Sequence record: PQ438048.1
DNA length: 64,000 nt
Origin: Escherichia phage MirsaeidiM_Esher1
Reading direction: 5' to 3' (one strand)
Both the position numbers and the translations under genes were made by a program. This document shows positions 11,013-12,353 of this stretch, piece after piece (position 1 is the first letter of the stretch; every line of letters begins with the position of its first letter). The notes below the pieces were generated by a model that did not search any database, was not told the DNA's origin, and saw only the letters and a list, made by a program, of their open reading frames with translations.

Positions 11013-11222
11013 ATGAAAAAGATTCTGACAGTCGTTCTTTTAGCTTTTAGTTTCACAGTAGCAGCAGGTCAAATTACTTTAATCTTGTCTGATTCTGAAG
11101 TTAATGGCAATACAAAATATTGCTACTATTCTAACGCTAACCAAGATGAAGTTATAGCAATCCCGAAAAGTCGTCAATGTCCGTATACTAAAACATTCTC
11201 AACAGAGGATGACGATGAATAA
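11013..11222 (+). CDS. small secreted/membrane-anchored protein with signal peptide (69 aa)
   Basis: N-terminal MKKILTVVLLAFSFTVAAG; AGGAGG RBS. Confidence 0.6.
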   Translation: MKKILTVVLLAFSFTVAAGQITLILSDSEVNGNTKYCYYSNANQDEVIAIPKSRQCPYTKTFSTEDDDE

Positions 11223-11234
11223 TTAGGGGGAAAT

Positions 11235-12353
11235 ATTAGCGGTTATATTTTAATTAAACCTGAAGATCTTCATTTATATGTCAACGAAGAAACAATAGCT
11301 GCAATTGATTATGATCAGATCGCTTTCCAAGCAGCGTCTGCATTAGAGAAAAGAACAATCATTGCGAAGCACATCCCTTCAGGTGCTCAAAAGGAATTTA
11401 AAAATAAGACAGAGTTTTGGGGTAAAAGCAAGACTAAAATTGGAGGTTGGCTAGGAGATACAAATGCAGAAAGAGCCTCCAAAAACAAACGTCCCTTCAC
11501 AAAGGAAGAGTTCGAAATCATTGATAAGCAATACCCGCCAGAAGATATCGGACACACCTTCCAAGCAGCTAAAACAAAAGTCTTAGGTATTCTAAAACAT
11601 CTACGTTTAGAAAAATATTGCGGAGTTATTGGCGTAGGAAAAACTTTCAGACACGCCTTCAAAATGCCTGTAGAATATAAATCTGAACGATTAGATATCA
11701 AACCACTTCAGCTTTCAGAAACCAAAGATTATCTTGTGGAGTTCCACAATGGTGATGTTGTTACTGTAATAGAAGCTGATGATGAGTTAGAGAAGTATGG
11801 TTTCCAAGGTTATAAAGATTATAAAAGGACGGGTAAATTTTCTTATATCGTTGTATCTATAGATAAAGATAGTTTACATACTCCTAGTATCCTTTTTAAT
11901 TTCTACAAAGAGGATGGAGTATTTAAAAATCCAGATATAATTCTTATTGACGAGTCTATTGGCGATATATGGATCGTAGATAAAGGTAAAAAGAAAGAAG
12001 TTAAAGGTTGGGGCAGTTACTGGTTAGCATATCAGATGCTAATGGGAGATAAAACAGATAGTATCCGACCTTATCAAGATTTTGATATTAAGTTCGGAGA
12101 TATTACTTGTTTTAATCTTCTTTCAGCTTGTAAAACTCAAGCAGAACTTTTCCAAACAGTTAAAGATACTTACTACTCATGGTTCCCAGATGGTGTTAAT
12201 TTTACTTCTTGGGATGGAGAAGAAGTCCATATGACAACAGATGAATGGATAGAAACAATTTTCCAGTTGGTATACATGAAACGCTGGGATAATGACGATA
12301 CAACATTTGAGAGTATGCTTCAGTCATACATCTCGCAACAGGAGGCAGAGTGA
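11235..12353 (+). CDS. hypothetical protein; start uncertain (ATT 11235 after AGGGGGA, or ATG 11664)
   Basis: Frame is open from 11223 to 12353 with no ATG/GTG/TTG before 11664, and is in frame with upstream gene across a single TAA at 11220. Confidence 0.4.
   Translation: MSGYILIKPEDLHLYVNEETIAAIDYDQIAFQAASALEKRTIIAKHIPSGAQKEFKNKTEFWGKSKTKIGGWLGDTNAERASKNKRPFTKEEFEIIDKQYPPEDIGHTFQAAKTKVLGILKHLRLEKYCGVIGVGKTFRHAFKMPVEYKSERLDIKPLQLSETKDYLVEFHNGDVVTVIEADDELEKYGFQGYKDYKRTGKFSYIVVSIDKDSLHTPSILFNFYKEDGVFKNPDIILIDESIGDIWIVDKGKKKEVKGWGSYWLAYQMLMGDKTDSIRPYQDFDIKFGDITCFNLLSACKTQAELFQTVKDTYYSWFPDGVNFTSWDGEEVHMTTDEWIETIFQLVYMKRWDNDDTTFESMLQSYISQQEAE

Follow-up and report, generated by a model that had tools for sequence, protein, structure and literature searches.

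The DNA analysed here, a stretch of 64,000 nucleotides (nt) from Escherichia phage MirsaeidiM_Esher1 (sequence record PQ438048.1; hereafter the window), comes from a phAPEC8-like phage (Phapecoctavirus, Stephanstirmvirinae) and is 99.4–99.9% identical to the best 40 GenBank records listed. Within it, a small open reading frame (ORF) is followed in the same frame by an exonuclease gene in which a canonical start codon appears only far inside the conserved sequence. We consider it very probable that 11235–12353 is one gene for a 372-amino-acid (aa) protein of the flap endonuclease (FEN) family, translated from an AUU codon 4 nt after a strong Shine–Dalgarno (SD) sequence. The features concerned are as follows.

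11013–11222, plus strand: small gene, 69 aa, with a signal-peptide-like N-terminus (PHROG 4641); SD AGGAGG at 11003–11008, then N4 and ATG; stop TAA at 11220–11222
11225–11231, plus strand: SD sequence AGGGGGA of the exonuclease gene; free energy (dG) of the anti-SD duplex -9.3 kcal/mol
11235–11237, plus strand: ATT, putative initiation codon, at which initiator tRNA would read AUU; it lies 4 nt past GGGGG and is proposed from ribosome-binding site (RBS) geometry and relatives
11235–12353, plus strand: predicted full-length gene for a FEN-family 5'-3' exonuclease / flap endonuclease, 372 aa, 43.2 kDa; stop TGA at 12351–12353
11307–11315, plus strand: codons of D25-Y-D27 (IDYDQ motif), where the first long β-strand ends; probable metal ligands, from conservation and the structural model
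11664–11666, plus strand: ATG, the start in almost all public annotations (229 aa, 26.9 kDa); internal Met144 of the 372-aa protein, with no SD

A long leader without a canonical start

The small ORF at 11013–11222 and the ORF ending at 12353 are parted by a single TAA (11220–11222). From 11223 the frame is open to the TGA at 12351–12353, and the earliest ATG, GTG or TTG in it is ATG 11664; the first 143 codons of the exonuclease gene contain no canonical start codon at all. The leader lacking such a codon is 147 codons long, compared with a median of 6.5 over the window's 70 stop-to-stop frames that reach 120 codons or more. Computed from the frequency of ATG, GTG and TTG in the 3' part of the gene itself or in neighbouring genes, the probability of 147 codons without any of them is about 5e-3 to 5e-4. 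The start-less leader at 11223–11663 exceeds chance expectation. An original prediction, made from the letters of this DNA, had described the shared frame, the single TAA, the opening to 12353, the first canonical codon at 11664, and an AGGGGGA followed by an in-frame ATT at 11235; every one of these coordinates was confirmed, with the SD placed at 11225–11231 and the ATT at 11235–11237.

Other candidates in the window did not hold up. The next-longest start-less leaders have junk translations and lie antisense to real genes, so they are not genes with near-cognate starts, and two occurrences of an SD followed by ATT or CTG, at 19541 and 25228, lie inside ORFs that have ATG starts.

Conservation of the 143 codons before Met144

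A tblastn search with the translation of 11223–11663 found matches in 672 phage records, with identity down to ~26%, usually inside genes annotated as exonuclease and 345–380 aa in length. Substitutions at the first, second and third codon positions number 5, 2 and 14 relative to phi92, and 6, 2 and 28 between two of the compared loci (L016 and L017), a third-position bias that is present from the first codons on. Upstream of the ATT, the ungapped alignment between genera drops to 33–42% identity. Sixteen invariant residues precede Met144, D25, D27 and E38 among them, and S2-G3-Y4 is kept across genera with codon changes that are synonymous. These patterns indicate that the 'gap' upstream of the annotated ATG is coding, and they point to purifying selection on the exonuclease gene across the clade down to 50% identity. 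Orthologs starting independently near 11664 behind unconserved sequence would have spoken against the original prediction; what the 672 records contain is conservation of the upstream 143 codons.

A divergent FEN-family nuclease

The region from 11235 to 12353 encodes one protein, as seen in three ways: PHROG 107 ('exonuclease') covers residues 10–367 in one continuous match; AlphaFold2, given the 372-aa protein and 65 database homologs, predicts one compact fold with a mean predicted local distance difference test score (pLDDT) of 96.2; and profile alignment (hhalign) passes through Met144 without a break. In the model, residues 1–143 hold six β-strands and several helices, and strand E16–25 leads to D25-Y-D27. 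Both aspartates are invariant in 13 of 13 sequences and kept in at least 90% of 65. The overall fold has the PIN-like α/β nuclease core that characterizes the FEN family.

In the hhalign comparison with authentic T5 D15, FRH..P.EYKSER pairs with FRL..PEYKGNR straight across Met144, IEADD (180–183) with VEADD, DKD (D210-K-D212) with DGD, and GDKTDSIRP (D272/D275) with GDLGDNIRG. The carboxylates of IEADD, D210/D212 and D272/D275 are invariant in relatives. The metal-binding carboxylates of T5 FEN we take to be D26, D68, E128/D130/D131, D153/D155 and D201/D204. D25/D27 may be the equivalent of T5 D26, going by the pattern IVDGTN / AIDYDQ only, and the position of T5 D68 (GDKG) appears as V/G in the 372-aa protein (GVGK). 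The helix-3-turn-helix DNA-binding motif (GDxxDNIxG-like) is present as well: MLMGDKTDSIRP aligns with T5 AIMGDLGDNIRG, and G271, D272 and D275 are invariant or almost so. PF02739 is matched by 16 of the 65 homologs at E ≤0.01 (best 1.7e-6); searches of the PDB with the 372-aa protein, by single sequence and by profile, gave nothing useful. Profile and fold together place the product in a divergent branch of the FEN family (PF02739 + PF01367), and its enzymatic activity is predicted.

Geometry of the proposed start site

The anti-SD duplex has a dG of -9.3 at ATT 11235 and of -10.2 to -10.3 for three neighbouring genes, compared with +0.4 at ATG 11664. The commonest RBS geometry in the window is GGAGG-N4-start (18 of 35), with spacings observed from 3 to 8 nt. 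The window's other well-supported genes start with ATG (55), GTG (8) or TTG (1). ATG 11664 sits within the conserved FRHxFxMPxEYKSER motif, and because FRH..EYKSER straddles Met144, the public 229-aa model begins in the middle of a catalytic motif. Translation from the AUU would have Met inserted there by initiator tRNA, with a predicted N-terminus of M-S-G-Y-I-L-I-K.

Start codons across relatives

At 72 loci, which represent 49 distinct proteins, we scored all ATG, GTG, TTG, CTG, ATT, ATC and ATA codons from the upstream in-frame stop as far as the DxD motif. In lineages of at least ~50% identity, the codon with the best SD is always near-cognate (dG -7.3 to -12.9), and canonical codons before the DxD motif are either absent or reach a dG no stronger than -3.5; at 43% identity and below, it is a canonical codon that has the best SD. 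ATT, ATC, ATA or CTG occupies the homologous position in 26 of the 28 distinct clade sequences (down to ~50% identity), and all 26 near-cognate lineages keep an SD, mostly AGGAGG, at the homologous place. The junctions and starts are listed here.

Phapecoctavirus: GGGGGaaat-ATT
phiWec186 type: GGGGGaatt-ATC
phi92 type: AGGAGGtaat-ATT
Tr1: AGGAGGcaat-ATT
FKP3 type: AGGAGGgtaat-ATC
L015/L033: AGGAGGag-TAA-ATC, an in-frame stop lying immediately 5' of the start
L034–L043 and L072: AGGAGGatgtt-ATT
L040: AGGAGGaaag-ATT, the first canonical codon occurring only at residue 196
L073 and L074: start ATT
L075, L076 and L041: start ATA
L042 and L080: start CTG

Sister-clade orthologs (Vequintavirinae and others) have ATG, TTG or GTG within one or two codons of the ATT position, as separate genes, and with these starts, near-cognate or canonical alike, all orthologs measure 362–379 aa. 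In a neighbour-joining tree, every one of 60 bootstraps groups the near-cognate lineages and a nested TTG lineage as a clade, comprising 26 distinct sequences with a near-cognate start and 2 with TTG. The tree implies at least six start-codon changes inside this clade; five exchange ATT, ATC, ATA and CTG for one another, one leads to TTG, and no change leads to ATG or GTG. The 21 distinct sister-clade sequences divide into 9 with TTG, 5 with GTG and 7 with ATG.

Two loci of a single protein (P0035), L080 and L081, have an identical exonuclease from residue ~23 on. At L080, an HNH homing endonuclease is inserted upstream, the junction has been rebuilt and the start is CTG, 1 nt after the HNH TAA; at L081, a small acidic-tailed ORF lies upstream and the start is ATT. 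A side observation concerns the sister-clade loci (L006 and L045–L062, Vequintavirinae-like), where TTG or GTG serves in 14 of 21 sequences, compared with 9 of the 64 well-supported window genes; a preference for weak starts may predate the near-cognate clade.

The upstream small gene and the junction

The TAA of the small gene ends 12 nt before ATT 11235. In phi92 the counterpart, gp086, carries a SignalP signal peptide in its annotation. Counted from stop to start, the offset amounts to 15 nt here (in frame), whereas phiWec186 has 14 nt and the phi92-type phages have 11 nt (both out of frame); in L015/L033 a TAG and a second in-frame TAA stand between the two ORFs, and in L074 and L080 the upstream gene is replaced by a methyltransferase or an HNH endonuclease. 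An identical 66-nt junction is found in 53 phage records (64 records match in all), and 55 more carry the phi92-type junction. The comparison indicates that the small signal-peptide gene is an independent gene and that the shared frame in Phapecoctavirus is an accident of spacer length.

One apparent fusion of the small ORF and the exonuclease, the 444-aa P0005, proved to be an artefact: the underlying DNA (L070 1201–2535, Logan SRR30397360) has a TAG that was called as Gln. The absence of a canonical start probably raised the score of this recoded (TAG=Gln) model, a case in which near-cognate starts can yield false 'recoded phage' signals.

The minimum free energy of RNA folding at the junction is no different from that of shuffled sequences (z -1.28), with no fold that sequesters the SD, and an Rfam search at the junction returned no credible match.

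Public annotation of the gene

Nearly all records carry a 229-aa 'putative exonuclease' from ATG 11664 and leave the ~440 nt before it unannotated; this type of model, or a similar one, is found in phAPEC8, iGC_PHA_EC001, ASO2A, FKP3 and most others. The starts chosen in sister genomes scatter (GTG at residue 29, TTG at residue 12, ATG at residues 120 and 144), and 36 of 36 database gene calls at ≥50% identity are truncated, at scattered positions. Near-cognate codons are not usable by gene callers. The phi92 record remarks on its own GTG start, 'No RBS identified; weak Prodigal statistics'. The ESCO13 RefSeq record has a 1119-nt coding sequence (CDS) from the equivalent of ATT 11235, with an RBS feature; the ESCO5/ESCO13 announcement paper does not mention the ATT start. 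A literature search covering phAPEC8, Stephanstirmvirinae and phage ATT starts found no publication on the non-canonical start or its conservation. Near-cognate initiation is already known as a phenomenon; what is new is a well-supported, phylogenetically replicated instance of it, together with a widespread annotation error.

Two further observations concern the records themselves. A 40-aa ORF on the plus strand at 11464–11586, annotated in phAPEC8 as gp266 ('hypothetical protein'; L001 2065–2187), lies in another frame inside the N-terminal coding region of the exonuclease and is almost certainly a spurious gap-filling call; FKP3 and Tr1 have similar filler ORFs. In addition, records labelled as Campylobacter phage (MG0656xx), Acinetobacter phage vB_AbaM_ABPW7, Klebsiella phage ZCKP1 and 'Dompiswa phage' are 99–100% identical here to E. 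coli Phapecoctavirus/Justusliebigvirus, and their host labels look doubtful, or they may be contaminating coliphages.

Probable initiation at the AUU and its alternatives

From the extent of the gene, its fold, the conserved N-terminus, the SD geometry and the pattern across the clade, we infer that AUU 11235 is the codon actually used. The ribosome would land by way of the strong SD, in the same geometry as at the canonical neighbours, and initiate at AUU 11235. The weak start codon would be maintained by selection: lineages exchange AUU, AUC, AUA and CUG behind an SD that is kept, and a canonical codon is almost never gained. The most likely purpose would be to cap a potentially harmful nuclease at a few percent of the output that the SD permits, and/or to make its synthesis sensitive to proofreading by initiation factor 3 (IF3). 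Ribosomes terminating on the upstream ORF, whose stop lies 8–20 nt before the start in every lineage, may aid initiation through translational coupling. We infer both the dose-limiting or IF3 rationale and the coupling.

Several points weigh against this reading. No N-terminal sequence or translation initiation site profiling was found that supports AUU initiation. The 372-aa protein falls below every Pfam threshold, with no hit at E ≤0.1 save one that is spurious, and because of this the FEN assignment rests on fold and profile evidence. The weak-codon rule has an exception in the nested sub-lineage L078/L079, which starts with TTG; a stricter version, by which the clade never has a canonical start, was given up for this reason. 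With so few changes (at least six) to count, the lack of any to ATG or GTG is statistically only suggestive. As for coupling, short distances from stop to start are typical of phage gene packing, canonical-start sister clades included, and no RNA structure or known regulatory RNA backs a specific coupling or regulatory mechanism.

The alternative that survives best accepts the N-terminus and assigns a different origin to the initiating ribosomes: the AUU start would depend on ribosomes that have just terminated upstream, through termination–reinitiation or 70S scanning, and that are less strict about the codon. This is possible, if on balance unlikely. An upstream stop 8–20 nt before the start in every lineage examined fits it, as do the frequent placement of that stop in or beside the SD (TAGGAGG in the phi92-type phages and L074; the HNH TAA 1 nt before the CTG in L080) and the absence of a good promoter between the small ORF and the exonuclease gene. 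However, the spacing is equally tight in the sister clades with canonical starts and is therefore not specific; there is no SD-sequestering structure for upstream translation to open (z -1.3); and the conserved strong SD argues that SD-directed positioning matters. If reinitiation were the mechanism, the near-cognate codon would tie exonuclease synthesis to translation of the upstream gene, not to the level of IF3.

Initiation at a near-cognate codon slightly downstream, such as ATT 11247 or ATT 11253, is improbable. Several in-frame ATT and ATA codons do occur within the first 20 codons, but the two named lie 16–22 nt from the SD, beyond the 3–8 nt seen in the window, and have weak SD scores; moreover, S2-G3-Y4 is conserved, and the ORF of L015/L033 has the ATC as its very first codon.

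Slightly less probable again is that the public model is right, with the exonuclease starting at ATG 11664 (229 aa) and 11223–11663 being non-coding or holding small unrelated ORFs such as phAPEC8 gp266. It has on its side the annotation practice of most records and the fact that ATG 11664 is the first canonical start in the frame. Against it, this ATG has no SD (dG +0.4) and lies inside a FEN motif that aligns with T5 FEN; 672 records conserve the 143 upstream codons as protein, and substitutions there favour the third position; a truncated protein would lose D25/D27 and six strands of the predicted fold; and the annotated starts of sister genomes are arbitrary, with all 36 database calls cut short at scattered points.

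We give hardly any credence to readthrough of TAA 11220–11222, by suppression or programmed recoding, into a fusion of signal-peptide protein and exonuclease. In Phapecoctavirus, both ORFs do share one frame with a single TAA between them, yet the offset varies among genera (15, 14 and 11 nt), L015/L033 have two in-frame stops, the upstream genes of L074 and L080 are different ones, the 'linker' codons are the SD itself and the P0005 fusion is an artefact. In addition, there is little sense in giving a DNA nuclease a signal peptide, and among the stop codons of E. coli TAA is in general the one least prone to leak. Just as implausible is a decaying or split gene (a pseudogene through nonsense mutation or loss of its start) or an error of sequencing or assembly at the junction, which the missing canonical start and the phi92 remark might suggest, but which is contradicted by 53 independent records with an identical junction and 55 with the phi92-type one, by third-position bias, invariant catalytic residues and an SD that is always kept strong, and by canonical-start orthologs that begin at the homologous position as separate genes.

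Of the four possibilities that the original prediction had offered, rare AUU initiation at 11235 is the one that stands, strongly supported by comparison, structure and RBS geometry. The frame relation is not kept (phi92-type phages and phiWec186 have the upstream stop in another frame), and with it fall both readthrough and a formerly fused gene with a nonsense mutation; a sequencing error falls with the identical junction in 53 records.

Operon context

The following features flank the two genes.

10945–10973, plus strand: candidate sigma-70-like promoter, TTGACT-17-TATTAT with TG; 10/12 in a consensus scan, the best in the region
10974–11002, plus strand: hairpin and T-run resembling an intrinsic terminator, which closes the upstream RdgC-like gene; a rho-independent terminator in the ASO2A annotation
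12350–13309, plus strand: gene for a DnaQ-like 3'-5' exonuclease, whose GTG start overlaps the FEN stop (GTGA 12350–12353)

The promoter at 10945–10973 is the probable promoter of the string formed by the small ORF, the exonuclease gene and the DnaQ-like exonuclease gene; a consensus scan of the region found no good promoter between these three. Its -10 box directly abuts the terminator hairpin, and the arrangement (10945–11007) looks like a compact terminator/promoter switch: a transcript begun at this promoter would start inside the hairpin and thus escape termination. Homologs of the DnaQ-like exonuclease carry PF13482 (RNase_H_2). Given the GTGA overlap, the FEN and DnaQ-like nuclease genes are probably translationally coupled.

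Comparison with known systems and significance

Phage T4 gene 26 has an internal AUU initiation that gives a second, shorter product, whereas the AUU described here would be the sole start of its gene and is conserved across a subfamily. In E. coli, AUA, AUC, AUU and CUG form a near-cognate group that initiates at ~1–2% of AUG, and the only confirmed AUU starts are those of infC and pcnB (Hecht et al., bioRxiv 10.1101/063800). The four codons found in the phage clade are exactly the members of that group. Such codons yield a few percent of the output of AUG, and IF3 discriminates against them (Hecht et al.; for the role of IF3 also PMC9723500 and PMC5472188).

Like infC (IF3) and pcnB (poly(A) polymerase I), the phage gene has an AUU behind a functional SD, and in those two cases the product is harmful or tightly dosed. 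It also shares with them the lack of a canonical codon for a conserved N-terminus, an SD at functional spacing and a near-cognate status kept in orthologs. Unlike infC, it encodes a nuclease unconnected with the translation apparatus, which makes autoregulation of the infC type inapplicable, and its orthologs swap AUU, AUC, AUA and CUG. Streptomyces sigR has a GTC start repressed by IF3 (PMC5472188) and offers a parallel in that a conserved non-canonical start restrains translation; it differs in codon class, organism and type of gene.

Among nucleases, identity to T5 D15, T4 RNase H and E. coli ExoIX is ~12–16%, and the 372-aa protein is ~80–100 aa longer, apparently through extra segments; T5 D15 is annotated with an ordinary CDS, unlike the exonuclease gene here. 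The exonuclease of the Vequintavirinae (rV5-like phages; Certrevirus PBES 02) is orthologous, with 37–43% identity, the same length, the same N-terminus position and a strong SD. Unlike the gene studied here, these orthologs use canonical starts, often weak ones.

In more than 100 public phAPEC8- and phi92-like genomes, several of which belong to candidate therapeutic phages, a core replication/repair nuclease is represented by a model that is truncated or begins at an arbitrary codon, whereas the correct product would be 372 aa and 43 kDa; some records add spurious small ORFs in the 'gap'. The case exposes a blind spot of standard gene callers, and a caller with an alternative code 'rescues' the gene as a false fusion.

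Confirmed starts at any codon but AUG, GUG or UUG are very rare. The clade amounts to a replicated natural experiment: throughout a deep group of phages, one gene shifts its start between exactly the four best near-cognate codons and retains a consensus SD, and this pattern makes selection for a weak or IF3-sensitive start testable by phage and reporter genetics. A bolder reading, which we hold to be doubtful, is that the weak codons are a regulatory device, by which flap endonuclease synthesis reports the initiation fidelity of the host (the IF3-to-ribosome ratio, or the state of the ribosomes in the course of infection) or is strictly gated on translation of the preceding gene. If so, the device would time or cap a nuclease able to damage replicating phage DNA, and the clade would provide a natural, phylogenetically replicated phage case of translational control exerted through the start codon, in which four weak codons are interchangeable.

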